30,727 nt of DNA from a virus, in the UHGV virus genome UHGV-0157886; one strand, given 5' to 3'. The translations under genes and the position numbers were made by a program. The notes under the pieces were generated by a model that saw only the letters and a list, made by a program, of their open reading frames with translations, searched no databases and had not been told where the DNA came from. This document shows, one piece after another, positions 1,298 to 20,804 of the stretch. Position 1 is the first letter of the stretch. The number at the start of each line of letters is the position of its first letter.

Positions 1298-1313
1298 GGC
1301 CGCGAAAGCGGCC
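1298..1313. terminator. GC hairpin GGCCGC-GAAA-GCGGCC between convergent genes; probable bidirectional intrinsic terminator
   Basis: Perfect 6-bp GC stem with GAAA loop. The minus-strand transcript would be followed by UUUUCUUUA (rc of 1289-1297); the plus-strand U-tract is weaker. Confidence 0.5.
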
Positions 1314-1314
1314 T

Positions 1315-1326
1315 GTGACATGTCAC
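1315..1326. repeat. Perfect 12-bp palindrome GTGACATGTCAC, copy A
   Basis: Identical 12-mer also at 18528-18539 and 20793-20804. Overlaps the stop codon of the 98-aa membrane ORF. Confidence 0.8.
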
Positions 1327-1619
1327 GTTCCTTTTCTGAATGATAGCCGTTCGAAAAATGATGACATTCCACCGCAGACAATAGCAAAGATGATCCCACC
1401 AAAGAAGAGAAGGCCAGCCTGCCACCACTCCCACCGCCATACATCCACAGCACCAACCATACCAACAATCGCTCCAACAAATGGAATATAGCTCACGATG
1501 AAAGCAATGGGGGCTGCAATTATCCAGTGCAATCCCCACCATGATTCAAGCCCAGCCATAATTGCTGCCAACTGAAAAAGACCAACGACGATATAAACAA
1601 TGAATCCTATAGCTTGCAT
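1323..1619 (-). CDS. Small integral membrane protein (98 aa, 3-4 predicted TM helices); holin-like or membrane moron candidate
   Basis: Strongly hydrophobic translation (MQAIGFIVYIVVGLFQLAAIMAGL...). ATG 11 nt after the stop of the preceding small ORF. Followed by the terminator hairpin. Confidence 0.55.
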   Translation of the reverse strand: MQAIGFIVYIVVGLFQLAAIMAGLESWWGLHWIIAAPIAFIVSYIPFVGAIVGMVGAVDVWRWEWWQAGLLFFGGIIFAIVCGGMSSFFERLSFRKGT

Positions 1620-1631
1620 GTAGTCACCTAT

Positions 1632-1805
1632 TTACCCAGTAAAAATCAGAGGCCTCCCCTCAATAAGGCTTGCAACAAGAACTATTCCCTGCACAACAAA
1701 GATGAACCAGCAAATAGCTTGAGTCTGAGGGTTAAGAAAATATTTGTAGCGGTCAATAAATAACAACCCACCAGAAATTATCACACTCAAAATAATTAAA
1801 AACAC
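1632..1805 (-). CDS. Small membrane peptide (57 aa, 2 hydrophobic segments), GTG start; not in the ORF track
   Basis: My translation of the minus strand: GTG at 1805 preceded by AAGGAAG (rc of 1810-1816), open to TAA at 1634-1632. Product (M)FLIILSVIISGGLLFIDRYKYFLNPQTQAICWFIFVVQGIVLVASLIEGRPLIFTG. Below the 60-aa track cutoff. Confidence 0.35.
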   Translation of the reverse strand: MFLIILSVIISGGLLFIDRYKYFLNPQTQAICWFIFVVQGIVLVASLIEGRPLIFTG

Positions 1806-1814
1806 AACACTTCC

Positions 1815-4289
1815 TTATTGCGGAGTGACATCCTGAGGTCGCCACCAGTATGTCTGATTAAACTCTTTCTTCGAACGTTGCTCCATTTTACGCAAATAGC
1901 CTGGTGAAAAATACTCCTGCATCTGGTTAAAGATCATATGATCGAGAGCCGCCTTTAAGTACCAGAGATTCGCACCTGGCATCAAACCTTTCCCCAGCTT
2001 CACCAGATCACCACCAGTCTGCTCACTCTTCCCTTCCACAGCATTTAACGGTATGCCCTGAGCAATCTTCACTACGTCATCAACCAGACCAGCTACCGGG
2101 CCAAGCATCGACGCCAGCGCGCCGCTTCCGTACCTAGTGTGATCTGACAATAAAAAGTCACCGTAAAGGCCAAGACCACCACCTTTCAGTAGAGCACCAA
2201 GCCAAAATTTAGCAGCATCTTCTCCTGTCATCTCGCGAGGATTACGACCAGACGCAAGGTCGTTAAGTTGCTGCGACAAAGCGCCAAGAATGGTCGTACT
2301 GGCAATAAACGTCGCAATATATGCCGCACGCCCACCAGCAGACGGCATACCCATAGCGCGTGACCAGTGACGCATAACCACCGAGATAGGGAACGATTTA
2401 AACAGGAAAACACTTCTCGTTAATTCACCTTTCCATGTTCCACGCTGAATACCAGAACCGGTTATCAGTTGCTCACGTGCTCCCGGTGTAATAACAGCCA
2501 TATCAACTTCTTCAGTTACGGCACCGAGCAGTTTACGCATTGCCTCAAATTTCACGCGTTCAGGCTCACCAAGATGTTTAACTGCTGAATCAGGGATACG
2601 CATAATGCTTTCCGGTGTCAGCATCGTATTATTGCCGTTCCCCCAGTCCTCCTGTTGCGCCAGCTTCCATACGCTCCAGTCTGTGTCAGTAATCCCTTTG
2701 CTTTTCAGGATACGAAAATCAGAATTATCGAGGCTACGAAGGTCTGGTGTCCGTGACACTACTTCTCCCAGGCTTCCAATCATGGTTACGCCATAGGCGC
2801 GCTTGTGCGCATCTGACCATGCTGTAAGCCCACTGGCACGCATTACCGCCGTTGCCGCCCAACGAGACACAGACGGCCCCATATTATCCATCGCCCAGCG
2901 GTTAACGCTGCCAAGTAGAGATTCCATCGCCAGACCAGCGCGGCGCGCCCGCGCAAGTTCTGTACGGTTCGTTGGGTCCATAGCTTCAAGCTGGTTGCGG
3001 AATAACTGGTTCATTGGAAGGTTGGTAACCTTCGCAGACAGATACATGGTTCCAAGATCAGAGAACGATGACAGCAACGCGGATCCGAGTCTGCTGGCAA
3101 CCAGCCAGTTGCGGATATTGTCAGACCATCGCGCGATGTGCGGATTCGCTACAGGCTGTGTCTTTCCGGAAATAAAGTTGTACAGATTCTCTGTGTTGTT
3201 CGCCAGCCGCTCGACTTTACCGGTTTTACTCGGGTTAGCTGTTGCCGTTTCTGCCTTCACCTGATCAAGAAGAGAGCGGAAAACATGATCGGGGTTTGGG
3301 CCATATGTTTCCACCAGTGCAATATCTTTACTGATACCTTCAAGGTGACCGACCATGATTTCCCATAGAGAGCGATCGCCATAAAGTTGCTGATATTGCA
3401 GATAGGAATCTGCATCTTTGAAATGTATCTGTCGTGATGCATTACCACGGTTAGCACGTGCGCCGGAAATTCGCATTCCGGTATCAGTAAGCTTATTCAG
3501 CCCACCAGTAGCGATCGTGTTATAAGCCTCTCCAAGAAATGCAGACAACTCGGCATCGTTCATCAGTTGTCCATCGGCTCGGGTATAATATTTGCGATCC
3601 AGCTTACCTATAACATCGCTAACCCATTTATCTTTTGATACCGCCCCAACCTTTTCCATAGAATGATGTTGAGGGATCCCCCAGTTTTCGAGATAGCCAA
3701 TGTCCCCACCAGCATCATTAAACCGGCGGCGCAGCAGCTCTGTAACTTCTCTCCACGCCTTAGCACCTTTTCTTGCTTTAGCATTGCCAGTATTTTGCCC
3801 TCGCATTTCATATACCAGATCACGCACGCCAGCTTCATCTTCAAACAGGCCAAAAAAGCGAGGATCAACTGCTTCAAATGCCTCCTGCAATTGACTCAAT
3901 GCATAATCACGAGTGGCTTTTGTTCTGGACTCAACAGAGAGGAAATTCGATTTACCGTCTGCATTAAAAGCAATAGTACGGTTAAGAGCGCCAAGTTTCC
4001 CATCAGCCCCTTGATAGCTATTGATAAATTTATCCAATCTCTGACGTGCGGCTATAGTGAGGGCCACACGACGTTTCTTTAATGCCGCTTCTCGCTGTAA
4101 TTCTTCAGATGCCAATTGTGCTGCTCGATATAGCCGCTCTGATTCGGAAAGTTGTCTCCACGACATCGGGTCATCACGAGCAATGGAGCGCATATTTCGA
4201 TAAATGCGGTCTTCAATGTTCTGTATTTCTCGCGCCGTTAACGTGCGCTGCGCCGCCTGCTGAACCGCTTGTATACATTCCTGTCTCAT
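1815..4289 (-). CDS. Internal virion / ejection protein (824 aa), T7 gp15/gp16-class by position
   Basis: Large ORF in a translationally coupled chain after the tail tubular genes. GAGAGG 9 nt upstream of the ATG at 4289. No family recognised from sequence alone. Confidence 0.55.
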   Translation of the reverse strand: MRQECIQAVQQAAQRTLTAREIQNIEDRIYRNMRSIARDDPMSWRQLSESERLYRAAQLASEELQREAALKKRRVALTIAARQRLDKFINSYQGADGKLGALNRTIAFNADGKSNFLSVESRTKATRDYALSQLQEAFEAVDPRFFGLFEDEAGVRDLVYEMRGQNTGNAKARKGAKAWREVTELLRRRFNDAGGDIGYLENWGIPQHHSMEKVGAVSKDKWVSDVIGKLDRKYYTRADGQLMNDAELSAFLGEAYNTIATGGLNKLTDTGMRISGARANRGNASRQIHFKDADSYLQYQQLYGDRSLWEIMVGHLEGISKDIALVETYGPNPDHVFRSLLDQVKAETATANPSKTGKVERLANNTENLYNFISGKTQPVANPHIARWSDNIRNWLVASRLGSALLSSFSDLGTMYLSAKVTNLPMNQLFRNQLEAMDPTNRTELARARRAGLAMESLLGSVNRWAMDNMGPSVSRWAATAVMRASGLTAWSDAHKRAYGVTMIGSLGEVVSRTPDLRSLDNSDFRILKSKGITDTDWSVWKLAQQEDWGNGNNTMLTPESIMRIPDSAVKHLGEPERVKFEAMRKLLGAVTEEVDMAVITPGAREQLITGSGIQRGTWKGELTRSVFLFKSFPISVVMRHWSRAMGMPSAGGRAAYIATFIASTTILGALSQQLNDLASGRNPREMTGEDAAKFWLGALLKGGGLGLYGDFLLSDHTRYGSGALASMLGPVAGLVDDVVKIAQGIPLNAVEGKSEQTGGDLVKLGKGLMPGANLWYLKAALDHMIFNQMQEYFSPGYLRKMEQRSKKEFNQTYWWRPQDVTPQ

Positions 4290-4294
4290 TTAAT

Positions 4295-6097
4295 TTAACC
4301 TCTCAAGAAACACGCCACAGCGACATCAAACAGGCTGGAATCCTGTATTGCCTGCTCACTTTCCATGTTCGCTTCATCCAGTACTTCACGCGCACTGCGC
4401 GATTGTGGATTACCATCATCATCCAGCACGGTGATTATCATGTCAGGTGATTCAAGCAGCGAGTCTTCAGCTATGCGCAGATCAATATCTCCTGCCGGAT
4501 CTGCCATCATCTTTTGTTCTGCCTGTTGCAATATCTTACCGGGCTCAAAAGGAGCTACTTCGTCTGGCGTCCTGACCTCTGCTGTTTTATAGAATGAAAC
4601 AGCCTGAGCATTAAGTTCACTTTCTGCCTGCTGTCTCCGAGCCAGTTCTGCTCGAGCTTCAAAAAACTGACCGCCAGGCTCGTGCGGTGCCAACGCGTTA
4701 CGGGAAAATTCCAGGCGTTCTTGTGCCTGCCGGATTCGTTGGTCAATATCGCGAAGTCTGACCTGTTTATCTGATCGAGCACGAGACAAAGCTTTACCGC
4801 TGCCGGTTGGCTCTTCTGCAAGAATTTGTGCGCGCTGTTCAGTGAGATTTTCAATAATTCGTTGGCTATTAGCGATTTCAGACTGGTAAACCTGTCTATC
4901 GCCACGCGGCAAAAGCTGCGCGGCCTGTTCTTCAAGCAACCGATTTTCTATAGCGCGCGCCGTTACTCCATCATCTACAGATGACAGAGCCTCATTAACT
5001 GCCTGAGACAGCAGACTCTTACGCCCAGGAATTTCACTGAAAGATGCAGGCTCAACAATGCTGGCAACGTCTACAGGTCTCCCTTGGCTAACATCAGACA
5101 TAGCTTTTCGCAGAGCCTGAATGTGAGAATTGCGCGAAAGCACGTTGATCGGCACGCCGGGAGAAATATCAATTTCAGCATGATGAGCGGCATTCGCCGC
5201 CAGTGCAGCATCGACATCAACTGGTGAAAAATTGGGGGTGCTTGTAGCCTCACCGCGAGAGTTAATAAATCTGCCGACACCACCAAACGCCACCCCAAGA
5301 ACAGCATCAATAGCAATTGCCTGTCGATCCAACACATCATACTGGTTAGCCATTTCGCTATAGCCACCATCACGAAGCGTTTTTGCAGTAAGCCCACGCT
5401 GTGCCATACCGAACGCAATATTTGTACCTGCGGCATAGGCAATATCTGGCGTTGCACGTACTGCTGTTGCTGCGGCGCGTCGCACTGAACTTTCACCCGT
5501 CCGCGCAAGCTGAGACGCCACACCTTCCGCCAGCGCACCACCAGCACGTAACCCGAGGCTCATAGGGATCAGTGTTCCGGCACCAGCAGTAATACCCTGC
5601 ACTAATCCCGCTTCCTGCGCCGTCCTGAAATCAACACCCTGTGCTGTCAGCCGTTCAAACTCAGAAAAACCCTGTAGCGAAGTTACCGCCGCAGCACCTC
5701 CGACCGGACCACCGAGCGTTGTACCGATAACAGCCTGCCCGCCCATATCGAACAACCCATAAAGAACCTGCCCGGCGGTTCCGGTTGTCGCGGCATCAGG
5801 CGTCAGCCGCTTAACCTGCTGCTCTGCTAGTTTTCTCTGCTCGGCAATGTATGAAACTGAAGTGTCATTGAGCGAGGTGTTTTCGTTAACAAACTGAGCA
5901 ATCGGGGATACGATTTTATCCATCCCTGCCCAGAGCAACTGATCTGGCTTTGCCACCAGCCCGGAGTACAAACCAGACAATGCCGCTCCTACAGCATTGT
6001 CGAAAAAGCCAACATCGCTGTTAAAGCCAACTGGATTTGATGCTGCTTCGTCAAGCTGCTGATTCTGGTTTACTGGATTAAGGCCAAAGTAACTCAT
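4295..6097 (-). CDS. Internal virion / ejection protein (600 aa) with Gly/Ala-rich hydrophobic N-terminal half and coiled-coil C-terminal half
   Basis: Start ATG overlaps the upstream stop (ATGA at 6094-6097). Gly/Ala-rich segments typical of membrane-inserting ejection proteins. Confidence 0.55.
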   Translation of the reverse strand: MSYFGLNPVNQNQQLDEAASNPVGFNSDVGFFDNAVGAALSGLYSGLVAKPDQLLWAGMDKIVSPIAQFVNENTSLNDTSVSYIAEQRKLAEQQVKRLTPDAATTGTAGQVLYGLFDMGGQAVIGTTLGGPVGGAAAVTSLQGFSEFERLTAQGVDFRTAQEAGLVQGITAGAGTLIPMSLGLRAGGALAEGVASQLARTGESSVRRAAATAVRATPDIAYAAGTNIAFGMAQRGLTAKTLRDGGYSEMANQYDVLDRQAIAIDAVLGVAFGGVGRFINSRGEATSTPNFSPVDVDAALAANAAHHAEIDISPGVPINVLSRNSHIQALRKAMSDVSQGRPVDVASIVEPASFSEIPGRKSLLSQAVNEALSSVDDGVTARAIENRLLEEQAAQLLPRGDRQVYQSEIANSQRIIENLTEQRAQILAEEPTGSGKALSRARSDKQVRLRDIDQRIRQAQERLEFSRNALAPHEPGGQFFEARAELARRQQAESELNAQAVSFYKTAEVRTPDEVAPFEPGKILQQAEQKMMADPAGDIDLRIAEDSLLESPDMIITVLDDDGNPQSRSAREVLDEANMESEQAIQDSSLFDVAVACFLRG

Positions 6098-8607
6098 TGC
6101 GGAATATCTCCGGAGAATCTCTGACGCTTCTGTGTCAGATCAAGAACAACGGGAGAACCATCATCTTTTAGCAGATAACCAGTACCAAGTTTCACCAGGT
6201 ACTGACTATCGCCGTAACTTTGCAAACCATACTGACCAGGCGGTGTTTTTATCCCTGTGCCAACAACTTGTTCATTCCAAGCCTGATTAACCTGCTTATC
6301 GAATTGCTCTGCAGACATTCCCCACGGCAAAAGAACATTCCCCATTCCGTTATAGTCATGCACGCCACCTGTAGCTACGTTAACAGCCTGTTTCCAGATA
6401 TCATTGTCAATTTCGCCTGATACCACGCCTTTTTTCGCCATCACACCAGCGTAATAGTCCTTTGCGATCTCGTATGCCATTGATGCCCCCTGAGCATCAC
6501 CAGCAAATGCATCCTTCACCATGTCAGAAAACTCAAGGCGAAGATCAGCATCTTTAGGCATCGGAATACCTTTCGCATCATCAGTACCTTTACGAGCCGC
6601 CGCGCCAGCAAGAATTGTCTGCGCAGCGGTTTCAGGAGACACGGAAACATCCGGATTAAACCAGTTTTTTTCTGCCAAAATACCACCTGGCTTATCCATC
6701 AGTATCCCGGCAACGGCAGCAGATGGAGCGTTGGCACTGATCTGCTGTAGTGCTGACATATACACCTGCCCACCACCAGTGCTCTGCCTGATGGTATCGA
6801 GATATGCTGCCTGTTGGGAAACGGGCGCATCACGAAAGAAAACACCGATCTGATTGGCCTCGTCTTTGGAAAAGAACGTCAGTGGAGTGCCATATGACTT
6901 AGCAAGGTCACTGACCTGAGCAGCACGCAAGGCAACGCTCTGTCCAAAGTTATCCTTATTGCTCATGTCGATAGGCTTTGTCTGTCCGGCGGCAAGAGAG
7001 AACTGTACAGGATCAGCCTGTCGCTGCTTTATCACCTGACTTGCAGCCGACACAACGTTGTCATAAAGAGCGGCTCGTGCCGCATAACCCTCCCCTGTCT
7101 CACCAGTATCCGGGCGTAATTGCTCAACATATGCTGTAATGCTGCTTGTCGGCATGTTGCGGAAAGAGCCTATATACTGTCCGGCGATTTGCGTATTTCT
7201 GAACTCGGTATATCGCAGGTTTCCTTCTCTTACTCCATAAGCTGCAATAAAATCAGCCTCACCAGGTGGGTTAGGAAATTCAACGCCACGCATATACGCA
7301 GCTGTCGCATCGCGAACCTGGCTGTCAATCATCGTTTTATATTCAGCCTGCTGCTGCCGACGCAGTTGATCCGCCTGTCGCATAAAACTTGCCTGCGCCT
7401 CAGGAGATGCCGCATCGAATGCTGCATTACCGGTATAGCGTTTGGTGTTGGTTGGAATTGTTGATAAACCAAGTGCTGCACTGACACCAGCAGTTAACTG
7501 CTGATCACTGTATGGCTGGCTACCGTTCTCATGATGGATAATGGCTGCACAAAGCGCCTTCAGGGTATCAGGATTAGATGCATCGAGAGGCTCATCAGCA
7601 GAAACGCCAAGTTGTTCGCACACTGCTTTGATATACGACATAGTGTCATTTTTATCAGCAGGCGGTGCCCAGCGATTAATTATCTCGCTGACGGTATCAA
7701 TACCCTGCCTCTGATACGACATCAGGTTCCGCCCTAATGCACGAATCCCGTGTTCAGGTGTTTCGAATTTAGCAAATCGACCATCATCACCGGTCTGGCC
7801 TACCCACGGATTAGTTTTGCTGTATTCGAGATTTCCTGGGTTATTGTTGCGTATGCCACGGGCACGCTCGGAAGAGTCACTATCTGCTACAGCACGGCGA
7901 GCTCCAGCAGCAGTATCACTTAACTCGCCATTACTTTGGATGAATGCGGTCTCATTGTTTGCCGACCACTGGGACAATGCAGCATCAGCAACCTTCTCTT
8001 TAAACTCGATTTTCTTGGCCTGGATTTGCTCGTTGCTCCAGCCATGTGCAACACCGTACTCCTCAATTTGCTGGAAAGTTTGTTTGTTAGCCAATACGTA
8101 TGCGGCGTTGTCGCCATACAATGCTGCGGCATTTTTACCATTGTTCAGCAGTGTCGCCTGAAACTGGCCTTCTTCGTAGGCATTAATTTGCCCTATCTCG
8201 TGTCGCCCGGCCTGCGTAGTGAACTGAATGCGCTGCTGCTGCGCCTGCTGCATGAAAGCATTACGAGCCTGTTCATCCGGCAGCGACATAGCCAGTTGTT
8301 CGACCTGAGCATCAAACTGCTGCGTATACTCATGGCCTTTTCCAATAGCATTTTTCCCTTTCAGGTTAAGCAATCCTGTTTCAGGATTATTCAGCAGATC
8401 GCTGCTTATCTGACTGAGGTTAAGAGATGCCTCCTGAGCCAGAGCGATATTGGCACGCTGTTTTGCCTGCCCCAAAACATCAATTGCCTCTGTCCCTGCC
8501 CGAACAAAAGCATCACCAATACCTTGCTGAGAAAACGTCTGCAAGCCTGCTGACTGAACTCCACGACTCTCAACCTGACGTCCGGATACTGTTGGTACGA
8601 CTGGCAT
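6094..8607 (-). CDS. Large internal virion protein (about 837 aa) with a possible cell-wall-hydrolase-like domain
   Basis: The ORF-track start at 8682 is probably too far upstream: the ATG at 8607 overlaps the stop of the preceding gene (TAATG) and has GGAGG 6 nt upstream. Internal segment RARGIRNNNPGNLEYSKTNPWVGQ...FAKFETPEHGIRALGRNLMSYQ looks like a conserved enzymatic or binding domain; the muralytic assignment is unverified. Confidence 0.55.
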   Translation of the reverse strand: MPVVPTVSGRQVESRGVQSAGLQTFSQQGIGDAFVRAGTEAIDVLGQAKQRANIALAQEASLNLSQISSDLLNNPETGLLNLKGKNAIGKGHEYTQQFDAQVEQLAMSLPDEQARNAFMQQAQQQRIQFTTQAGRHEIGQINAYEEGQFQATLLNNGKNAAALYGDNAAYVLANKQTFQQIEEYGVAHGWSNEQIQAKKIEFKEKVADAALSQWSANNETAFIQSNGELSDTAAGARRAVADSDSSERARGIRNNNPGNLEYSKTNPWVGQTGDDGRFAKFETPEHGIRALGRNLMSYQRQGIDTVSEIINRWAPPADKNDTMSYIKAVCEQLGVSADEPLDASNPDTLKALCAAIIHHENGSQPYSDQQLTAGVSAALGLSTIPTNTKRYTGNAAFDAASPEAQASFMRQADQLRRQQQAEYKTMIDSQVRDATAAYMRGVEFPNPPGEADFIAAYGVREGNLRYTEFRNTQIAGQYIGSFRNMPTSSITAYVEQLRPDTGETGEGYAARAALYDNVVSAASQVIKQRQADPVQFSLAAGQTKPIDMSNKDNFGQSVALRAAQVSDLAKSYGTPLTFFSKDEANQIGVFFRDAPVSQQAAYLDTIRQSTGGGQVYMSALQQISANAPSAAVAGILMDKPGGILAEKNWFNPDVSVSPETAAQTILAGAAARKGTDDAKGIPMPKDADLRLEFSDMVKDAFAGDAQGASMAYEIAKDYYAGVMAKKGVVSGEIDNDIWKQAVNVATGGVHDYNGMGNVLLPWGMSAEQFDKQVNQAWNEQVVGTGIKTPPGQYGLQSYGDSQYLVKLGTGYLLKDDGSPVVLDLTQKRQRFSGDIPQ

Positions 8608-9152
8608 TATAATCCTCCGGGTAATCTGGTTCCTGCTGCTGCCCCGATTGGCGCAGGAGTGCTTTGAGTAAACGGACTCCACGTCCCACCAAACATCTGG
8701 TACGCACCGTATGCCTTCAGAGGCGCAGTGAGCAATGTTGTTGCTGCTCCCACATTCCCCTGTTTACGGGCTGAACTGGCTTCTGCTTTATAGTTGGCAG
8801 CCTGAACCTGATAACCGTAAGCCTCGCGTTGCGCGTTATTCACCGTCGTCAGCGAATCAAGAGCGCCAAACTGGGCAGTGTCGCCAAATATATCCAGCGC
8901 GTTACCTGTAGATAAATCAGCGCCGGTAGCCCCCATTGTCGCCGCCTGTGTACCAAGCCGCTGTCGGGTCTCTCTGCGTCGTTGCTCAGCTTCAGCGTTA
9001 CCTCTGTTTATTGCATCATTTGCCTGAGCTGTGGCTATATCTGCGTTCGCTTCTGCAACCTTCGAGGCATACTTTCCCTGTTGGTACTGGGTGTATGCCT
9101 GAATGCCACTCATGGCGAGCATTGCGCCACCAGCAATAACCGGATCGCACAT
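8607..9152 (-). CDS. Internal virion protein (181 aa, Ala/Gln-rich), T7 gp14 position
   Basis: Start overlaps the upstream stop (TAATG at 9150-9154). Size and position match podovirus internal core protein B. Confidence 0.45.
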   Translation of the reverse strand: MCDPVIAGGAMLAMSGIQAYTQYQQGKYASKVAEANADIATAQANDAINRGNAEAEQRRRETRQRLGTQAATMGATGADLSTGNALDIFGDTAQFGALDSLTTVNNAQREAYGYQVQAANYKAEASSARKQGNVGAATTLLTAPLKAYGAYQMFGGTWSPFTQSTPAPIGAAAGTRLPGGL

Positions 9153-12695: not shown

Positions 12696-13021
12696 TCACC
12701 TCCGTTACCGTACAGAGTTTCAGCCGCTGATTTTTCTACATCCCCGGAAACAGGAGCGATCGCCATATCAGTGATCTGCAGATCGGCGCTGCGATTAACG
12801 CCATCGTTAGTTTCTCTGGCAGACAGGCCTCGAATAACAGCCTTTGCAGTTATCATCACTTCCGTTCCGACGCCCTTAGGTTGCGCCTTCAGCTTATTCA
12901 ATGTGTCGTTATTAAGAGTGATGCACAGCCCCCACGGGTATTCATCGCGAGTTCTGGTTTCTCCGCTCTCATCCTGGTAGCTGTCAGTGCCGGTTTTGAG
13001 GTTTACGAGTTCCATATACAC
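12692..13021 (-). CDS. Hypothetical virion-module protein (109 aa)
   Basis: ORF in the operon between the capsid and tail tubular genes. Start follows a hairpin and GGAG. Confidence 0.4.
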   Translation of the reverse strand: MYMELVNLKTGTDSYQDESGETRTRDEYPWGLCITLNNDTLNKLKAQPKGVGTEVMITAKAVIRGLSARETNDGVNRSADLQITDMAIAPVSGDVEKSAAETLYGNGGE

Positions 13022-13024
13022 TCC

Positions 13025-13047
13025 TGCAATAAAGGGGCCGAAGCCCC
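13025..13047 (-). terminator. Intra-operon hairpin GGGGC-CGAA-GCCCC followed by a U-tract on the minus transcript; probable attenuator
   Basis: Stem 13034-13038 / 13043-13047; minus strand continues UUUAUUGCA. Lies downstream of the capsid-proximal genes, as often seen after highly expressed capsid genes. Confidence 0.4.
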
Positions 13048-13065
13048 TTGTCTGATCCGCGAGGC

Positions 13066-13410: not shown

Positions 13411-13411
13411 C

Positions 13412-13849: not shown

Positions 13850-13900
13850 CTTCTTTCTCCATTAGTGGGTCTGTTACGACCCACAGGTTAATAACAGGCG

Positions 13901-14893
13901 TTACACCACGCGGGCTTCTGTTTCCAGAAGCGCATCAGTTTCACGGATTGGTACACCACGGAATGAAGTCCACCACTCGCCTTCAGTCTCTTTTACGCTG
14001 ATAGCCAGAGATGTTTTCTCCAGAGACTGCAGATCAAGAGCCTGGCCTACAGTGCGGTTCATGTAGAACACCGGGCGGCCCATGCCACGGTTTGGAATGC
14101 GATGTAGTGCTTTAACCATCAACTTCGCAATATTTGCGGCAGAGGAAGGTTCTGAAAGATTGCTGACATCGATATTTGCAATGCGAACAACATAACGCCA
14201 GTCACGCAGAGCAAGTCCGTTGTCCCATTTGTAATGGGTGCGATAGCCTTCGTACTTGCCGCCATTAGCATCTTCCAGTGTCACCTGGCCTTTATCTTCC
14301 ATCTGGATGCCAGCCTTCTGCCCTTTCGGGAAGATGCCATGCACGGTGTTTTCGCCCCACACCACTAACCAGATTGAGGTGTTATCTGTACCCGTGCCAC
14401 CAGCATCAATGATGTTCTGAGCATTACCCGCAGACAGGCTGGAATAGCGGGAGGACAGTCCCATAAACTGCTGAGGGTTAACGCTGGAATCACCATAAAA
14501 CAGCGTCTGCGCCATCTGCTGATTCATCGCTTCAATAAATGCGCGGTCTTCAGACAGGCGGAATTCGGCGGTATTGCCGTTCAGATCAGCCAGTGACTTA
14601 TCGACTTCAGCATAGGTTTCCAGCATGCCCACGTAATCGGTTACCTGCACTGTGGTTGATTTGCTTGGCTGTACGCCATAGTTCAGCAAACGCCAGGTAG
14701 CTGAAGGTAAACCAGAACGAATGGTGGTTCGGTGTCCGGTAGGAAGGTTCCCTTCGACAAAAGGCATATCCTGAAGGATCGGGTTAGTTTGACCGAGAAG
14801 CTCGATAATCTTATCGACTTTCCCGTTTGGATCGACGCGCTTACCCCAGTCAGCCAGCGTTAGCGCAGTTAAGCCTTTAACAGACATTGTCAT
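13901..14893 (-). CDS. Major capsid protein (330 aa)
   Basis: Follows the scaffold gene in the canonical portal-scaffold-capsid order. Size typical of HK97-fold podovirus capsid proteins. Confidence 0.65.
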   Translation of the reverse strand: MTMSVKGLTALTLADWGKRVDPNGKVDKIIELLGQTNPILQDMPFVEGNLPTGHRTTIRSGLPSATWRLLNYGVQPSKSTTVQVTDYVGMLETYAEVDKSLADLNGNTAEFRLSEDRAFIEAMNQQMAQTLFYGDSSVNPQQFMGLSSRYSSLSAGNAQNIIDAGGTGTDNTSIWLVVWGENTVHGIFPKGQKAGIQMEDKGQVTLEDANGGKYEGYRTHYKWDNGLALRDWRYVVRIANIDVSNLSEPSSAANIAKLMVKALHRIPNRGMGRPVFYMNRTVGQALDLQSLEKTSLAISVKETEGEWWTSFRGVPIRETDALLETEARVV

Positions 14894-14901
14894 TTCCTCT
14901 C

Positions 14902-15597
14902 TTATTTGCCATAGAGCACTTCGGCCGCACTACGCTGGCCTTCATTACCACCGGTGACCATGCCATCTTCAGACATCGCCTTTCCGATTTTCACGAACGT
15001 TTTGACCAGATCAGGGTGATTACCCAGCCCGGTGGTGTTCAGATATTCTTTGAGTTCAGGTGTCCCGAACTGGTCAAGCGCACGCTGTGCGGCGCTAAGG
15101 TTAGAAATCAACTTGTCGCCACCGATTTCTTTGTCAGCTTTTACATCCGCAGCCCACTGCTCGGTTGTTTTCTGCCAGGCTTCTGCCTGGCGCTGCTGAA
15201 CACCTGCCAGAATCTTCGGATAAGCATCAACCAGCTTTTGCGCTTGCTCGTTGGTCAGGTTAAGTTCTCGCGCCACCGGCTCGAATTCCTTCAACGCTTC
15301 TGTATCCAGCTCTACGCCTTCGGCAGCCTGAAACTCGTACTTCTCAGGCGCACCCTCTGGTTTATCGCCGTCCTTTTTTTCATCCTGCTTATCGTTTTCA
15401 GGCTTTTTGTCATCAGCAGGTTTATCGCCATCAGCAACAGGTTGTGGCTTATCACCTTCCTGTTGTGATGGATCACCAACTGGAGCAGGGTTATCACCTG
15501 CAGGCGCTGACGGTTCTGACGCAGCCGGAGCTGCTCCACCATCGACTGGTTGCTCATTGCAAAGACGGCGATACAGCAAACGCTCAAATAAATTCAT
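14902..15597 (-). CDS. Scaffolding protein (about 231 aa) with an acidic Pro/Asp/Lys-rich N-terminal region
   Basis: ATG at 15597 with AGGAG 5 nt upstream (the track start at 15603 is a GTG). Low-complexity acidic N-terminal half and helical C-terminal half are typical of scaffolds. Confidence 0.6.
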   Translation of the reverse strand: MNLFERLLYRRLCNEQPVDGGAAPAASEPSAPAGDNPAPVGDPSQQEGDKPQPVADGDKPADDKKPENDKQDEKKDGDKPEGAPEKYEFQAAEGVELDTEALKEFEPVARELNLTNEQAQKLVDAYPKILAGVQQRQAEAWQKTTEQWAADVKADKEIGGDKLISNLSAAQRALDQFGTPELKEYLNTTGLGNHPDLVKTFVKIGKAMSEDGMVTGGNEGQRSAAEVLYGK

Positions 15598-15599
15598 GA

Positions 15600-15896
15600 T
15601 CACTCCTGTTCACTGGCCTCTTTGGCCATCTTCAAATACTGTTCAGGGCAATGCGCCATAACGCGCTGAAACAGTTCCAGCGCCAGATTGCGTTGCCCCT
15701 CATTAAATGCCATTGCCATAGCATCCATCGGAGAGATAGCGGAAAACACCCGGCCTTTCTCCAGCACAGACCAGACAACGCGACGCCCCTGTTCACTGCT
15801 CATGACAAAGCGAATGTCATCAATTTCACGCTGTGCCATGTCACGTTGCTTACGGGCGTTTTCTTCTTTCAGTTGATCGTCTTCGTAATCTGTCAT
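15600..15896 (-). CDS. Hypothetical head-assembly protein (98 aa) between portal and scaffold
   Basis: Start overlaps the portal stop (ATGA at 15893-15896). Charged helical translation. Confidence 0.45.
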   Translation of the reverse strand: MTDYEDDQLKEENARKQRDMAQREIDDIRFVMSSEQGRRVVWSVLEKGRVFSAISPMDAMAMAFNEGQRNLALELFQRVMAHCPEQYLKMAKEASEQE

Positions 15897-17572
15897 TGTG
15901 ATTGCCCACCCTGACCACTAACTGCATTCGCCATAGCTGACAAAACACTCGGATCCGAAGTTTTAGCTTCGCTTAGCGTCTTGGCACCCTGTGCCGCCGC
16001 CATCCCCATCGCCATCATTTGTTGCTGCTGTTGCTGCTGTGCCCGTTGCTGGCGAGCCTGCTCAACCTGTTCCTGCGGAACAATGACGATTGGAGACACT
16101 CCGGACATATCAGCGAATGCATCGATCGCCTGATCAACGTTGAGTTTGTCGAGAGCTTCTGGTTTCGCTTGCGCAAGTTGACCAATGAAGTTAACCGTGG
16201 ACGCCAGACTGGACAGGCCGATAGACTTCTGCGCCTGAGCCATGACGGAAATGTATTCGACCTTCAGGGGCATGCCTTCCATCGCGTCAGGCGGTGGCGG
16301 CAGCATGTTTTTACGCACCATCATCGAGAAAGCGCGGTCAATGAGAGGATTAAGACATTCGTCGTTCAGACGCTCCAGAACCGGCCCCAACATCAGAAGC
16401 TTTTCTTCTTTCATTTCGATCACCGCTTCAACAGGCATTGAGCGGGTATTGATGTTCTGCAACATCATGAACAGATCGACGAAGTAGGCGCTGTTAATGA
16501 TTTGACGAGTGTCCTGAATGTCTGCCACCAAATCTGCTGTACTGGGGTTAACCAGATAAGCAGGCCTGAAGCCATCCTGACCAGTAATCTGATCGATATA
16601 CGTGATGTCGCCAGGAAGAAGGGAGGCACGCTGATTCTTGAGGGAAGTCGGAGCAACCATCGGCGGATTGGTGGCTTTATCAATCAACTGCGACTTGCGC
16701 TTCTGGAGAAGCTGCAATGCCTTAACAGGTCCAAGCGCCAGCATACCCGGGCATGATGATCCATAAACATCTTCGCCATTAACTTCCCAGCGCGGAGCCA
16801 TAATTGGAAACTCATCGAATCCGGACTCACGCAACAACTTGTCGTTATCGCCACCAACCTCGTAATAAACCGATTTGAATGGCTTGTTCTTGCTATCCAG
16901 CTTCGATGTATCGCGGTCAATGTTCGGGTAAACCGAATGCATCACTTCGATCCACTTCTCGTAGGTGCCGCTTTCCCACATGCTTTTTACGGATTCGCTG
17001 ACGTTATTTAGCCCGAACTCCTGAACAAGCTGACGAACAGTCATAGAGAACTTGCGAAAACAGGTGTCAACACTGCCACGAGGTGAGTTAGCCAGGTAGT
17101 AACTGCCTATCGGGAATGGCATTGTGCGAATGATGTCCTCGTCATCCTCCAGTACCGCCATTGCACCGGTGCTGTATGTGCCGAGGCTTCCGTATAACTG
17201 CGGAAGAGACTGGTAGAGATTCGACTTATTGAACATATCGTTCATGCGGTTCTGCACCGCCTCAAGCCACAACTTAACAGGGCCATAATCCATCATTTCA
17301 GGATCTGGCGTAGCCAGGCGAAACCACGGACGCGCGGGGCTTGTGATGCCTGACATCATGCCGCTGGCGAGAGTGCGCGCCGCCATAGTCCCGGTCGAAT
17401 CAATAATACGTGTATTGCGTCGATCGTTACGGTTGACCTCAGAAGTCAGAAAGCGGGAACCACGCGGGTTGATGTAATCACTCAACTCGCGCCAGTGCGG
17501 CTCGAACGACTGACGCTCGCTTTCAAGTTGTGCGAACTGTTTGTTCAATCGCTCTTTAGTTGTTTCCGCCAT
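15893..17572 (-). CDS. Portal (head-to-tail connector) protein, T7 gp8-like, 559 aa, with C-terminal poly-Gln/Ala-Met tail
   Basis: Directly downstream of the large terminase, with expected size. C-terminus QQRAQQQQQQQMMAMGMAAAQGA resembles the Q/A/M-rich C-terminus of T7 gp8 from memory. Confidence 0.7.
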   Translation of the reverse strand: MAETTKERLNKQFAQLESERQSFEPHWRELSDYINPRGSRFLTSEVNRNDRRNTRIIDSTGTMAARTLASGMMSGITSPARPWFRLATPDPEMMDYGPVKLWLEAVQNRMNDMFNKSNLYQSLPQLYGSLGTYSTGAMAVLEDDEDIIRTMPFPIGSYYLANSPRGSVDTCFRKFSMTVRQLVQEFGLNNVSESVKSMWESGTYEKWIEVMHSVYPNIDRDTSKLDSKNKPFKSVYYEVGGDNDKLLRESGFDEFPIMAPRWEVNGEDVYGSSCPGMLALGPVKALQLLQKRKSQLIDKATNPPMVAPTSLKNQRASLLPGDITYIDQITGQDGFRPAYLVNPSTADLVADIQDTRQIINSAYFVDLFMMLQNINTRSMPVEAVIEMKEEKLLMLGPVLERLNDECLNPLIDRAFSMMVRKNMLPPPPDAMEGMPLKVEYISVMAQAQKSIGLSSLASTVNFIGQLAQAKPEALDKLNVDQAIDAFADMSGVSPIVIVPQEQVEQARQQRAQQQQQQQMMAMGMAAAQGAKTLSEAKTSDPSVLSAMANAVSGQGGQSQ

Positions 17573-17586
17573 TTCAATGACTCCGG

Positions 17587-17793
17587 TTACTGACCAAGTA
17601 GCGTTTTACCGCTGGTATTAGCGGTTGATGTGTCGCCCTGAGAACCGGTAAGCAGCGTAGAACTACGACCAGCAGCAGCGCGACGGCGACGTGTTTCTTC
17701 GTCGCGGGCATCAACAACGGCGGCATCCTGCTCCTGTGGTGCTGCCTGAACTTCTGGTGTTGCAGGCACTGATGGTGAGCTACCCATGCACAT
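17587..17793 (-). CDS. Small basic Ala/Pro/Arg-rich protein (68 aa) immediately upstream of portal
   Basis: ATG at 17793 with GGAG 7 nt upstream. Preferred over the overlapping 79-aa frame in the track. Confidence 0.4.
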   Translation of the reverse strand: MCMGSSPSVPATPEVQAAPQEQDAAVVDARDEETRRRRAAAGRSSTLLTGSQGDTSTANTSGKTLLGQ

Positions 17794-17883
17794 ATCAATG
17801 ACTCCGTACGCAATTAAATTATTACCAATTTAACCACATATGATTTATTTATCGTAGATAGTTGACATTTAACGCACAAATTA

Positions 17884-17898
17884 TTACCTTTCAGGTAA
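17884..17898. promoter_or_regulatory. Operator-like inverted repeat TTACC-N5-GGTAA (site 2) in the portal / tRNA intergenic region
   Basis: Perfect TTACCtttcaGGTAA. TTGACA at 17862-17867 sits 17 bp upstream on the plus strand; AACCACATA at 17832-17840. Confidence 0.5.
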
Positions 17899-18220
17899 CT
17901 AAAGAGTTCATTCCGGTTGCTAACCTGACTGGCTTGTCGTTAAATTGAACAGGTGGAGTGAGCTTTTGTTTTGAGCAGTACGGCGTATGGCACATGCGCC
18001 GATAGCGGTCTGGATACGTTTAAGGGGCACCCTCCCTTGCTCGGGCAAACGAACCAGGTAGCCGGAATGTGCAAGTCGAGCGGTTTTATTCCGCGCACGG
18101 GGATTCACCATCCCGGCGATTCGGTGTGACGCCTCGGAAGAGACGAGGGTACAACGATGAGAGCATTTATGGAGCCGCGACAAAGTGTGGCGCCTTAACA
18201 GGCTAAGTGCTCTCAGCGTT

Positions 18221-18297
18221 GTGGCATTAGCTCAGTTGGACAGAGCAACCGCCTTCTAAGCGGTTGGTCGCAGGTTCGAATCCTGCATGCCACGCCA
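18221..18297 (+). tRNA. tRNA-Arg, anticodon UCU (reads AGA), CCA encoded
   Basis: Manual cloverleaf: acceptor GTGGCAT / ATGCCAC, D-arm GCTCAGTTGGACAGAGC, anticodon stem ACCGC / GCGGT with loop CTTCTAA, T-arm GCAGG-TTCGAATC-CTGC, discriminator G, CCA at 18295-18297. Confidence 0.85.
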
Positions 18298-18340
18298 GAA
18301 TCACGCCTAAGGACCGTGATGCCAGAAGTTCCAGGTGCTT

Positions 18341-18382
18341 GGCGGTGATGGTTTCCCTTGAAGGACTATCACCGCCCTTTTT
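18341..18382 (+). terminator. Intrinsic terminator downstream of the tRNA
   Basis: 9-bp stem GGCGGTGAT / ATCACCGCC followed by CTTTTT. Confidence 0.65.
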
Positions 18383-18460
18383 ACAGCAGGACGCCATTGC
18401 GATGACTTCATGCTGTAAACCAGTACAGCCACGGAAGGCATAACTCATTGCTTCCAGTTC

Positions 18461-18484
18461 GCCCGGTTCGCCGGGCATTTTTTT
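18461..18484 (+). terminator. Second intrinsic terminator (GCCCGG-TTCG-CCGGGC + T8)
   Basis: Perfect 6-bp GC stem with TTCG tetraloop followed by ATTTTTTT. Confidence 0.7.
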
Positions 18485-18527
18485 AAGGTGTGAATCATGA
18501 AATACGAATTCGATGGATTTTGATGTC

Positions 18528-18539
18528 GTGACATGTCAC
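18528..18539. repeat. Perfect 12-bp palindrome GTGACATGTCAC, copy B
   Basis: Identical to copies at 1315-1326 and 20793-20804. Lies just downstream of the large terminase stop. Confidence 0.8.
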
Positions 18540-18543
18540 AAAC

Positions 18544-18570
18544 AGCCAGCCGATGAGCTGGCTTTGTTTT
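18544..18570. terminator. Hairpin AGCCAGC-CGATGA-GCTGGCT with T/A-rich flanks on both sides; possible bidirectional terminator after the large terminase gene
   Basis: 7-bp stem; TTGTTTT follows on the plus strand and GTTTG on the minus strand. Confidence 0.45.
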
Positions 18571-18613
18571 ATCCTCACCAGAGGATATCAGCAGCATTAT
18601 CCCCTCCAGAGGA

Positions 18614-20089
18614 TTAAGCATAGGGATCGTAATCTGTAATGGCCTTGCCTTGCTGGTTCTGCTGACCGGGAATTCGCAGACGCTTCGACACCGGGAAAGC
18701 AAACGTCAGCAGTAGCGCATCGCCTTTACCCGGCGAACGCCCAAGCCGCTCCTTGATATCTTCCTTCGGTTCGATAACGATTTTACCGTCCACGCGAACT
18801 TTGTACTCTGCCGCCGACAGGTCGTCCGCTGTTTCCTGGTCATCCAGCATGCCGCCCAGCCTCAGCCATGTCTTGCATGCATTGAACATCTCCCCACGCT
18901 TGTTAAGCATCTGCGGGTCAGTGGACGCACCGCCGAACGGAACAAGTTGCCATGTACGTCCCCAGCCATCACCGATTGACTTCAAACCGGTTCCGTAACC
19001 GAAGTCGATGAACACCGCGTCAGCCTGGTACTGGTCTTCAAAGTCAGCGATACGCTTCGCCATAATCAGATCGTCGGTTGTCTTGTTGCCAGTCCATAGC
19101 ACCTTACTGTGCAGCCCCTGCCGCAGGTATATCACCGCGTCATCAACGCCTGAATATGCCGGGTCAACACCGATTATCACCGGAGCATGCGCCACCTGCG
19201 CAGCGGTTACCACCCGTTTCATTGCCTCATCAGTAAGACCGGTAGGGATAAACTGCAATTCAGATGCATCAGGGAATATGCCGCGCACACGGATTTTAAC
19301 GAAGTCGCTGTCTTCCCCGTAGTCATCAACCCATTTCTGCAACTGCTGTTTGTTAGTGCCTTCCACCGTCCGGCTGTCAATCTGCGCAGTTTTCCAGCGG
19401 TGTTTATATTTGCGGAAACATTCACGGAATCGCCCGGTATTACGCGTCGGGTTTCCGAACGCCACCCAGATAATCTCAGTGTCTTCGTCCGTTAGCGCAC
19501 CTTCGGCAACTTCCCACACCAGATCCGCAATATTCGACGCTTCATCGAATACCACGATGATGCGTTTGCGCTCGTTGTGTAGTCCGGCGAATGCCTCAGT
19601 GTTGTGCTCAGACCAGGGGATTGCGTCAGCTCGCCACCGCTTGTCGTGTCCAGGGTCATTGCTGTACATCGCGGTAGCTGTACAGGTAAACCAGTCTTTC
19701 GTGATAGCAAGGTTTGACCACTTGATAATTTCCGGCCAGGTCTTCGTTCGTAGCTGGTTGTCGGTGTTGGCGGTCACCACGACCTTACAATCCTCGCAAG
19801 TGGACATGCCCCAGTTGATCAGCATTGAGATGAATGCGGATTTACCAATACCGTGACCCGAAGCACGTGCCAGCATAAGCGGCTGATAGCGCGTCTCTGG
19901 ATTCTGCAGGTGATCACGTATCTCTCGGAACGCATCAGCCTGCCACTTACGTGGGCCGGTAGCATGTGCCAGTTCAGTCCCCTCTTCCCCCCACGGGAAC
20001 GCATAGAGGGCATAGCCAAGCGGATCGTGAGTGAACCCTGCAATATCCTCGATCAACTGCTCTTCAGGAGATAACGCTGTATCTGTCAC
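18614..20089 (-). CDS. Terminase large subunit (491 aa)
   Basis: Walker-A-like ARASGHGIGKSA near the N-terminus. Size, acidic nuclease-like C-terminal half, and position immediately after the small subunit with overlapping stop/start. Confidence 0.8.
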   Translation of the reverse strand: MTDTALSPEEQLIEDIAGFTHDPLGYALYAFPWGEEGTELAHATGPRKWQADAFREIRDHLQNPETRYQPLMLARASGHGIGKSAFISMLINWGMSTCEDCKVVVTANTDNQLRTKTWPEIIKWSNLAITKDWFTCTATAMYSNDPGHDKRWRADAIPWSEHNTEAFAGLHNERKRIIVVFDEASNIADLVWEVAEGALTDEDTEIIWVAFGNPTRNTGRFRECFRKYKHRWKTAQIDSRTVEGTNKQQLQKWVDDYGEDSDFVKIRVRGIFPDASELQFIPTGLTDEAMKRVVTAAQVAHAPVIIGVDPAYSGVDDAVIYLRQGLHSKVLWTGNKTTDDLIMAKRIADFEDQYQADAVFIDFGYGTGLKSIGDGWGRTWQLVPFGGASTDPQMLNKRGEMFNACKTWLRLGGMLDDQETADDLSAAEYKVRVDGKIVIEPKEDIKERLGRSPGKGDALLLTFAFPVSKRLRIPGQQNQQGKAITDYDPYA

Positions 20090-20682
20090 TGATTACCATC
20101 CTGACGTTCTTTGAGTCGCTTCCTGGCTGCTGCTATGCGATCAGCAATTGTCACATTCACATTAACATCCAGACGTTCTTTGAACGCGTTGACATCAACA
20201 TGCTTACCAATCAGCTCAAGGTTCTTCACCTTGTCAGGCCATTTAATTTTTTTGAGGATTGTCTCTATCGAATCCTCGTTCATGTTCATGATGGTCGATG
20301 ACAGATCAAAGCCACTAAGCGTAGTGCGCCAGATTTTCGGCCACTCACGGATTGGTTTAAGGCTCCCATCGTCGTTGAGGATGTCGATCACGTCCATCTG
20401 GTCGATCTCCACCAGGCGCATGAGAACGTAATCAGCACTGACGCGCATTCGTTTGTTGCGCTCCTCCATCAACTCGGCAATCCGTTTTTGAATGCGTTCA
20501 TCGCGCATCATGACGCTGGCTTTAACTGCCGCTGTATTTGGGGAGAATCCTGCGTTAATCGCTGCCTGAGTCTGGTTTTCAGGCGTTTTGATGTATGACT
20601 GGCAATAAGCCTCCTGCATTGCTGTTAGTGGCTTAAATTGCGTTGATTTGCGTTTATAGGTTTTAGGTTCAGCAGGCATCAT
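20086..20682 (-). CDS. Terminase small subunit (about 198 aa)
   Basis: Basic helical N-terminus, then oligomerisation-like region, directly upstream of and overlapping the large subunit. The ORF-track start at 20760 adds a Thr/Val-rich extension that overlaps the operator repeats and a terminator, so the ATG pair at 20682/20679 (MMPAEPK...) is preferred. Confidence 0.55.
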   Translation of the reverse strand: MMPAEPKTYKRKSTQFKPLTAMQEAYCQSYIKTPENQTQAAINAGFSPNTAAVKASVMMRDERIQKRIAELMEERNKRMRVSADYVLMRLVEIDQMDVIDILNDDGSLKPIREWPKIWRTTLSGFDLSSTIMNMNEDSIETILKKIKWPDKVKNLELIGKHVDVNAFKERLDVNVNVTIADRIAAARKRLKERQDGNQ

Positions 20683-20691
20683 AACCACCGT

Positions 20692-20721
20692 GGTAATAGT
20701 TACCGTTGTGGTAATAGTACC
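20692..20721. promoter_or_regulatory. Cluster of TTACC/GGTAA half-sites, including a perfect TTACC-N5-GGTAA at 20700-20714, immediately upstream of the small terminase start
   Basis: GGTAAtagTTACCgttgtGGTAAtagTACC: four alternating half-sites. Confidence 0.5.
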
Positions 20722-20723
20722 AT

Positions 20724-20751
20724 GCAAAATAAAGCCGCCATAGTTGGCGGC
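20724..20751 (-). terminator. Intrinsic terminator in the leader of the packaging operon
   Basis: Hairpin GCCGCC-loop-GGCGGC (20734-20751) followed on the minus transcript by UUUAUUUUG. Confidence 0.55.
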
Positions 20752-20792
20752 AGTATCCAAAACCCGTCAAATTCATCATGCATAATCTACTC

Positions 20793-20804
20793 GTGACATG
20801 TCAC
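20793..20804. repeat. Perfect 12-bp palindrome GTGACATGTCAC, copy C
   Basis: Identical to copies A and B. Overlaps the stop codon of the 115-aa ORF upstream of the packaging operon. Confidence 0.8.

Follow-up and report, generated by a model that had tools for sequence, protein, structure and literature searches.

The viral genome UHGV-0157886, a stretch of 30,727 nucleotides analysed here over its whole length (hereafter the window), carries three exact copies of a 12-bp palindrome, GTGACATGTCAC, at positions 1315-1326 (copy A), 18528-18539 (copy B), and 20793-20804 (copy C). Judged from its sequence, the window is an Escherichia coli prophage of the genus Uetakevirus (epsilon15/phiV10-like), with its late genes on the minus strand and a terS-terL module 96% identical to those of phages phiv142-3 and phiV10. 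In the general form GTGAC-N2-GTCAC, the palindrome tracks the gene of a small protein, gp49 of epsilon15 (family phrog_536), across unrelated phages, and the gp49 homologue of the window ends inside copy C. The best-supported reading, for which we see about an even chance, is that the palindrome may be the operator of this phage-encoded, putatively dimeric protein and may act at the boundaries of transcription units. The initial annotation of the window had listed among its candidates a binding site for a dimeric regulator other than the one that binds the TTACC sites. These TTACC sites are CI-type repressor operators (ATTACC-N5-GGTAAT), which are annotated in epsilon15, and phrog_536 now supplies a candidate for the second regulator.

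Perfect 12-bp palindromes are in themselves ordinary in this DNA, because the window contains 10 of them versus 8.0 expected; the unusual part is the threefold recurrence of a single one. First-order Markov simulations (500 runs) never produced a 12-bp palindrome in three copies; two copies, the most obtained, were seen in eight runs. The three copies lie exactly where the initial annotation had placed them, and its expectation of 0.002 occurrences per 30 kb is right for a single 12-mer specified beforehand. A near-copy with one mismatch at 15833 was considered as an additional site and rejected, as it lies within a coding open reading frame (ORF) and is absent from epsilon15.

The link between motif and protein becomes visible outside Uetakevirus. 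Homologues of gp49 that are 35-44% identical were found by tblastn in the N15-like phages phiKO2 (p45) and PhiR46_1, the P2-like Yersinia phage vB_YenM_201.16, the Vibrio phages K308, PE002A, and VPHZ6, and an Aeromonas phage. GTGAC-N2-GTCAC occurs in one to three copies in each of these genomes, versus 0.03-0.05 expected, except in the Aeromonas phage, which has two copies of the variant GTGACCGGACAC instead of the exact motif. In phiKO2, PhiR46_1, vB_YenM_201.16, and PE002A the homologue's TGA stop codon coincides with bases 2-4 of the motif, a register identical to that of the window. The motif begins one base past the stop in VPHZ6, and K308 has no copy at the stop of its homologue. A scan of IMG/VR with an alignment of diverse homologues yielded 80 diverse loci with a total of 1.29 Mb, in which 74 motifs were counted versus 1.2 expected. 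The exact motif is located at the homologue's stop in 45 of these loci, and in 43 of them the offset is -1, so that the TGA is embedded in the register described above. Placement at the stop or no more than 25 nt from it applies to 45 of the 80 loci and to seven of the eight named phage lineages examined. The motif was seen with 10 of 15 protein clusters (70% identity), which have differing C-terminal residues, and with seven different central dinucleotides. Linkage of a dyad operator to the gene of its regulator, which would be expected of a ribbon-helix-helix regulator-operator pair, is found here. As a control, no motif was detected in 166 kb of DNA without the gene (lambda, part of P2, and E. 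coli chromosome), where 0.16 were expected, so that this comparison has little power.

Across these lineages the half-sites are invariant, the two central nucleotides vary by lineage and are mostly uniform within a genome, and the orientation of the motif relative to transcription is mixed. This combination of fixed half-sites, lineage-specific centre, and mixed orientation argues for a symmetric dimer that binds duplex DNA and has co-evolved with its sites. A restriction or methylation site with an ACATGT core was considered and rejected, because the central bases vary by lineage while the outer half-sites are fixed. An attP or integrase core was likewise rejected, because the spacing of two is too short and the Uetakevirus attP lies elsewhere. 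The N15-like phages contain extra copies of the motif at conserved positions (31182 and 36062 in phiKO2; 3009 and 7689 in PhiR46_1), one in the leader of the antirepressor operon (icd/antA/antB) and one within the repA/primase gene. In two Vibrio phages (L094, 7187-8859; L095, 18603-20261), an integrase gene immediately precedes the phrog_536 homologue, both being on one strand, and the homologue has the motif at its stop.

Within Uetakevirus, the 12-mer is present at the homologous A, B, and C positions of epsilon15, the Salmonella phage SPN1S, the Enterobacter phage Tyrion, phiV10, phiv142-3, and the prophage of E. coli 4/1-1, and at the B and C positions of the Klebsiella phage Kp4865-1. 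Single-base variants were seen at C of phiV10 (one half-site base) and at B of phiv142-3 (one central base). Among 80 close relatives from IMG/VR, copy C was found in 79 (77 exact) and copy B in 67 (60 exact), and both copies occur in all five more distant Uetakeviruses (epsilon15, SPN1S, Tyrion, Kp4865-1, and phiV10). The mean pairwise identity is 0.97-1.00 for the motif versus 0.38-0.76 for the adjoining 12 nt, and the neighbouring terminators have kept their stems among relatives while loops and spacers changed. The initial annotation had named two observations that would speak against a functional element, namely copies not conserved in position and a 12-mer common throughout the host chromosome. 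Neither was made: the positions are kept among relatives, and about 111 kb of host DNA, a limited sample, contain no copy.

Two further observations concern copies that are easily overlooked or misread. The GenBank and RefSeq records of phiV10 are linearised inside palindrome C, so that its one-mismatch copy, GTGACATGTTAC, is split across the record ends and invisible to a linear scan. The palindrome is nevertheless not a physical genome end (cos or pac), as the phiV10 record was merely opened after the stop of the last gene and the other two copies are internal. In the two Salmonella phages, a degenerate copy immediately ahead of attP contains the Rz stop codon; it reads GTGACATGTCAT or GTGACATGGCAT (at 26722 in SPN1S, where the copy is GTGACATGTCAT, and at 26618 in epsilon15). 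A fourth site at the Rz stop was rejected because the E. coli relatives have not kept it.

The local context of the copies in the window largely agrees with the initial annotation. Copy A lies at the end of the long structural operon. The last gene of this unit (1323-1619, minus strand; phrog_3075) encodes a hydrophobic membrane protein of 98 amino acids, and its TGA stop is formed by bases 2-4 of the palindrome. An intrinsic terminator hairpin, AGGCCGCTTTCGCGGCCT, followed by a T-run (1297-1314, minus strand), abuts the copy, and a convergent plus-strand ORF (1016-1291) ends on the far side of this hairpin. Copy C overlaps the TGA stop of the putative regulator, the homologue of epsilon15 gp49 and PhiV10p55 (20801-21139, minus strand), which has 112 amino acids if translated from the ATG at 21139 and 115 if translated from the GTG at 21148 (ORF 20801-21148, minus strand). 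An intrinsic terminator on the minus strand (20735-20753) follows 39 nt downstream of C. A terminator occurs 24-39 nt downstream of C in the window, in epsilon15, and in most relatives examined, and it is kept in epsilon15, SPN1S, Tyrion, and phiV10. This hairpin had been taken for the leader terminator of the packaging operon. It instead closes the early operon, because the repressor operators of terS, two CI-type sites at 20681-20715 at the terS start and thus at the 5' end of the next unit (identified from the epsilon15 annotation and the sequences), lie beyond it.

Copy B requires a different description. It follows the terL stop at a distance of 75 nt and is separated by 4-5 nt from a hairpin at 18544-18563, a bidirectional intrinsic terminator annotated in phiV10 that serves both terL on the minus strand and a tRNA/accessory unit on the plus strand. 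The copy has the terL terminator on one side and a hypervariable accessory-gene slot on the other. Its placement beside a terminator just after terL is as first described, and the statement that every copy marks the 3' end of a minus-strand unit holds for A and C. B, however, fits better as the end of the plus-strand unit converging on terL, because the tRNA-Arg(tct) gene of this unit (18221-18297; detected by ARAGORN, with the RefSeq annotation of E. coli 4/1-1 in agreement) is encoded on the plus strand, opposite the late genes. Public annotations of this tRNA-Arg DNA conflict, as phiV10 is annotated with a protein ORF (p04) and phiv142-3 with a minus-strand tRNA. The last element of the unit before B is a plus-strand ORF of eight codons (18497-18523; MKYEFDGF followed by a stop), which ends 4 nt before the palindrome and is, judging from its similarity to a gene described below, what is left of an accessory gene in a slot that is otherwise empty. 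In one IMG/VR relative (L045), two exact palindromes (4551 and 4944) lie 393 bp apart after terL, each preceded by its own terminator hairpin, as if the boundary unit of terminator and palindrome had been duplicated in tandem.

The starts of the units are marked by different elements. The CI-type operator has 11 matches in the window versus 0.7 expected, at 942, 17883, 20681, 20699, 23761, 23823, 25751, 26136, 26848, and 26910, with a weak match at 8609 that falls within a coding region. These operators are located in the immunity region, at the terS start, and upstream of a gp3-like gene, of a DUF1064 gene in the early region, and of a plus-strand accessory ORF. In epsilon15, operators together with annotated integration host factor (IHF) sites lie upstream of terS, gp3, and gp20. 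The prophage repressor thus appears to control the late units directly, and the transcription units seem to share one architecture, with CI-type operators at their starts and terminators plus the palindrome at their ends.

The palindrome also coincides with the points where relatives cease to be alike. Homology breaks within a few bases of it at A, B, and C, so that the 12-mer marks mosaic module junctions at all three sites, a comparison that the initial annotation had proposed. At B, three upstream and six unrelated downstream alleles were distinguished among the 80 relatives, the downstream ones starting right at the palindrome edge. Five of the downstream alleles are different convergent accessory genes and the sixth is the empty slot of the window with its eight-codon vestige. 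Each of the accessory genes in this slot ends with its stop codon, 4 nt (mostly CRCC), and then the palindrome. At C, the slot is the interval between palindrome and terminator and has at least three variants; it contains a gene of 70 amino acids in 21 of the 79 relatives with site C and a remnant in the window. At A, at least four different small genes lie upstream (in the window, phiV10/SPN1S, epsilon15, and Tyrion). The 70-amino-acid gene is intact between palindrome C and the terminator in relative L019 (2121-2333) and likewise in other relatives. The MKYEFDGF vestige before B and the remnant behind C (20768-20790, minus strand) are both homologous to the 3' end of this gene (..DEFDGL and stop), which suggests that the same small gene has visited both slots. 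In Kp4865-1 (L088, about 12709-12800), a near-perfect LexA box, TACTGTTTAAATATACAGTA, and an umuD-like gene are inserted directly after palindrome C, toward terS. Homologues of B-slot genes in the phages Sf6 (gene 66) and Akira are not followed by the palindrome. It was therefore rejected as part of an accessory gene or moron cassette and belongs to the phage backbone rather than to the cargo.

What gp49 itself offers is compatible with a DNA-binding role. Its family carries the PHROG label "transcriptional regulator" and is "hypothetical" elsewhere, and no basis for the label was found. Searches of gp49 against Pfam, NCBIfam, and PDB (phmmer, hmmsearch) gave no significant match; the same holds for hhalign comparisons with Arc/Mnt/CopG and with MatP and for a Foldseek search of the gp49 model against PDB and BFVD. 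Common to the family are a basic helix at the N-terminus, in which arginines are invariant (in gp49 this terminus is arginine-rich), an extended stretch with two helices behind it, one long helix, and a cluster of cysteines at the C-terminus (CxxC...C...C). A first AlphaFold2 (AF2) model from a shallow alignment was too poor (predicted local distance difference test score, pLDDT, 59) and was not used. The AF2 model that was used has its best likeness to ribbon-helix-helix DNA binders, with MatP-matS among the three best structural matches, although the fold assignment is weak. The core of gp49 is thus a probable ribbon-helix-helix domain on the basis of this model. Known ribbon-helix-helix regulators (Arc, Mnt, CopG, MetJ, and type II antitoxins such as KacA/TacA) have operators that overlap the promoter under control. 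The phage motif, in contrast, is found at the 3' ends of units, inside a stop codon and beside terminators, without a conserved promoter.

We propose that gp49, produced from the last gene of the early operon, would bind the three sites and, once bound, would act on elongating RNA polymerase at the unit boundaries. In the version that we prefer, the bound protein would reinforce the terminators as a roadblock or boundary element. Polymerases reading through from the early operon would be halted at C, the convergent tRNA/accessory unit would be insulated from terL at B, and the structural operon would be kept apart from the convergent accessory genes at A. Because the gp49 stop codon lies within C, a roadblock there would in addition cut the gp49 mRNA short of this codon, and the resulting non-stop transcript could provide negative autoregulation. 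Such autoregulation would explain why the register of the stop codon within the site is conserved. A comparable arrangement is said to exist in the lac system, where LacI bound at O3 reportedly acts as a roadblock that leads to tagging of LacI by transfer-messenger RNA (work attributed to Abo and colleagues, 2000). There, too, the gene that encodes the regulator overlaps with an operator at its 3' end, and truncation before the stop would feed back, as we infer for the phage. In LacI-O3, however, the overlap is a side effect of an auxiliary operator, whereas in the phages it occurs in a conserved register in 43 of 80 diverse loci. In the N15-like phages, K308, and the Aeromonas phage, the sites lie 9-19 nt ahead of a start codon and border on Shine-Dalgarno sequences; this arrangement fits a block of read-through or translational coupling, but not an upstream activator.

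Several observations weigh against an operator of gp49 that works in this way. The link between gp49 and the sites rests on co-occurrence, and gene and site could be co-inherited as one module. About one third of the homologue loci have no exact or one-mismatch motif at the stop, although some of them have variants nearby. The sites next to Shine-Dalgarno sequences in the N15-like, K308, and Aeromonas phages are not next to terminators, and the position of A and C upstream of a terminator would suit a loader of antitermination as well as a roadblock. Moreover, for sites that do not change from genus to genus, the reinforcement of boundaries seems to be a modest role.

An essential role, which would account for the invariant sites, could be antitermination. 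According to this alternative, gp49 bound at the palindrome would be handed to the passing polymerase, and read-through would couple the early operon to terS-terL and the late units together, similar to lambda Q and to RfaH at ops. We regard this possibility as unlikely, but several features invite it. Like Q in lambda, gp49 is encoded by the last early gene, which a terminator and terS follow immediately, and in the Vibrio and Aeromonas phages examined the homologue lies 0-2.5 kb upstream of terS. As in the Q and RfaH/ops systems, the site precedes a terminator by at most tens of bases (0-39 nt upstream of the hairpin at A and C, in VPHZ6, and in the loci L117, L131, L134, and L167). Late-gene regulators such as Ogr and Q, moreover, commonly have a cysteine-rich C-terminus. 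The Q-binding element, however, lies within a promoter that has a sigma-dependent pause and occurs once per genome. The window has three palindromic sites, one of them behind its terminator and none with a conserved promoter: the promoter-like match at C is weak and unconserved, and the terS operators lie beyond the terminator. Moreover, gp49 has no similarity to the Q families in Pfam, NCBIfam, or PDB, and the N15-like phages already encode a Q-like protein.

Three considerations favour a roadblock over antitermination. First, B follows the terL terminator on the late strand but precedes it for the convergent accessory unit, and a palindromic loader at this position would also license accessory transcripts running antisense into terL. 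Second, each late unit has its own upstream region with CI-type operators and, in epsilon15, IHF sites, so that the units appear to be promoted independently. Third, the P2-like phages have a single site, which faces only cos and convergent late genes, and they possess Ogr. As for the termination or processing signal proposed in the initial annotation, adjacency to terminators is conserved in Uetakeviruses and some other lineages, so that an effect of the palindrome on termination is plausible. The 12-mer itself was rejected as an intrinsic terminator, because it lacks a T-run and as RNA can form only a 4-bp hairpin with a tetraloop (-1.2 kcal/mol), and the true terminators are separate, adjoining hairpins.

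A different interpretation starts from the resemblance of the motif to matS, the chromosomal site of the MatP protein. For gp49 and its sites as a phage-borne miniature counterpart of MatP/matS, which would bridge or insulate phage DNA or act on host MatP-MukBEF, we see a slim chance; this estimate extends to a related variant, a terminator-coupled elongation switch that would be loaded from the site in its own stop codon. Slimmer still is the chance that the palindrome is a purely architectural site, at which host MatP, or gp49 as a small MatP, would bridge and organise phage DNA or interfere with MukBEF and the organisation of Ter without any role in transcription. The 13-bp matS consensus, GTGACRNYGTCAC (PMC6907758), has half-sites, GTGAC...GTCAC, identical to those of the phage motif, and MatP reads matS through a ribbon-helix-helix domain (PMC12756933). 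The three dispersed sites per genome resemble a bridging arrangement. In addition, all hosts of phages with the gene-site pair are Enterobacterales, Vibrio, or Aeromonas, and the latter two are MatP-bearing taxa as well.

The differences from matS nevertheless outweigh the likeness. The spacing between the half-sites is two in the phages versus three in matS, and the 13-bp form GTGAC-N3-GTCAC is absent from the window and from all Uetakevirus genomes examined. The matS sites are chromosomal, with about two dozen copies in Ter, whereas the phage motif occurs in one to three copies at gene ends. Clustering in Ter was not observed, as the sites lie in the prophage and none in the approximately 111 kb of E. 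coli chromosome sampled. MatP has 150 amino acids and a four-helix bundle; gp49 has 112 amino acids, a single modelled N-terminal helix, a cysteine-rich tail, and no detectable sequence similarity to MatP. The lineage-specific central dinucleotide argues for phage-specific recognition instead of recognition by one host protein, and the P2-like members with a single site have nothing to bridge. The phage motif thus resembles matS but is not a member of this class of sites. The binding site of SlmA, a host protein of the TetR family, is also a 12-bp palindrome, GTGAGTACTCAC, and shares the outer GTGA...TCAC. Its four central bases differ from those of the phage motif, whose centre varies by lineage.

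The coincidence with mosaic junctions raises the question of whether the 12-mer is kept solely as a crossover or microhomology point, for example for RecE/RecT, and is read by no protein. The breaks at the palindrome edge, the allele series at B, and the variants at C would be in line with this, and the phage encodes RecE/RecT-like proteins. A passive crossover point, however, would not stay identical at 12 of 12 positions across four host genera while the adjoining terminator changes. Furthermore, P2-like, N15-like, and Vibrio phages have the same half-sites with other centres at the stops of the homologues, without an evident mosaic slot there. We therefore consider a pure recombination site very improbable and reject it on both grounds. 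Boundary or linker sequences at mosaic junctions are reportedly known from lambdoid phages (comparisons of the HK620/HK97 type), and the palindrome shares with them that a short conserved sequence lies where homology between related phages switches. Lambdoid boundary sequences are generally longer, less exact, and gene-flanking, and no binding protein has been assigned to them, whereas the palindrome is an exact 12-bp dyad tied to a protein family, also where mosaicism is not seen. Thus, the module boundary suggested in the initial annotation is real at all three sites, but a dedicated recombination site is not needed. The breakpoints are explained more simply as a by-product, because recombinants survive where a conserved functional island adjoins accessory slots.

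A signal at the RNA level, either a hairpin or a protein-binding element for termination, processing, or translation of a neighbouring gene, is equally improbable, and an RNA hairpin was rejected. All sites are transcribed as part of 3' or 5' untranslated stretches, several lineages have them next to the Shine-Dalgarno sequence as described above, and the N-terminus of gp49 is arginine-rich. The RNA structure is too weak, however, and both half-sites are invariant without compensatory changes across very distant lineages. The sites also occur in both orientations relative to transcription, and by inspection they have no evident complementarity to the stems of the adjacent terminators. Hardly credible, finally, and likewise rejected, is a promoter element with GTGACA, whose likeness to a -35 hexamer the initial annotation had noted, as the -35 in one or both directions: the consensus scan found GTGACA-18 nt-CATGAT at C (minus strand) and GTGACA-18 nt-AATGAT at A (plus strand), but these 9/12 matches are no commoner than in shuffled sequences, the unrelated flanks of the relatives do not retain their weak -10 partners, B has no -10 partner at all, and at A such a promoter would fire antisense into a gene while on the other strand it would run straight into the terminator.

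Apart from the palindrome and its neighbourhood, the window contains an array of a 24-bp iteron, TCCCGTTTTTGGGATCATTCAACA, with three full copies and one partial copy in tandem (25070-25195). The array lies inside a DnaT/O-like replication gene (24658-25455, minus strand) and is probably the phage origin of replication.

A literature search on the 12-mer and its variants, on Uetakevirus regulation, and on MatP- or matS-like phage elements returned nothing relevant. None of the phage records compared has the site annotated, and the cis-acting sites annotated in them are only repressor operators, IHF, integrase, and RNase III sites, and terminators. Pairs of a regulator and a dyad operator are familiar as such. 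As far as we could determine, the protein family, the motif, its placement in stop codons and at unit ends flanked by terminators, and the matS-like half-sites are new.

The regulation of epsilon15-like phages is poorly mapped, and the unannotated phrog_536 gains from this analysis a candidate 12-bp operator and a small, defined regulon. Members of the family are found in Uetakevirus, N15-like, P2-like, Vibrio, and Aeromonas phages, and enterobacterial prophages contain them very frequently. That the half-sites are identical to those of matS raises the question of cross-talk with, or descent from, the host system that organises Ter. Because the edges of three accessory-gene slots coincide exactly with the sites, these may be useful for the annotation of cargo genes and for phage engineering, and several of these phages (phiV10, SPN1S, and the O157 typing phages) serve in detection and typing. 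The unusual layout, with an operator in the regulator's own stop codon and further copies at terminator-flanked unit ends, would offer a testable case of boundaries controlled by a protein, through a roadblock or through antitermination, in temperate phages.

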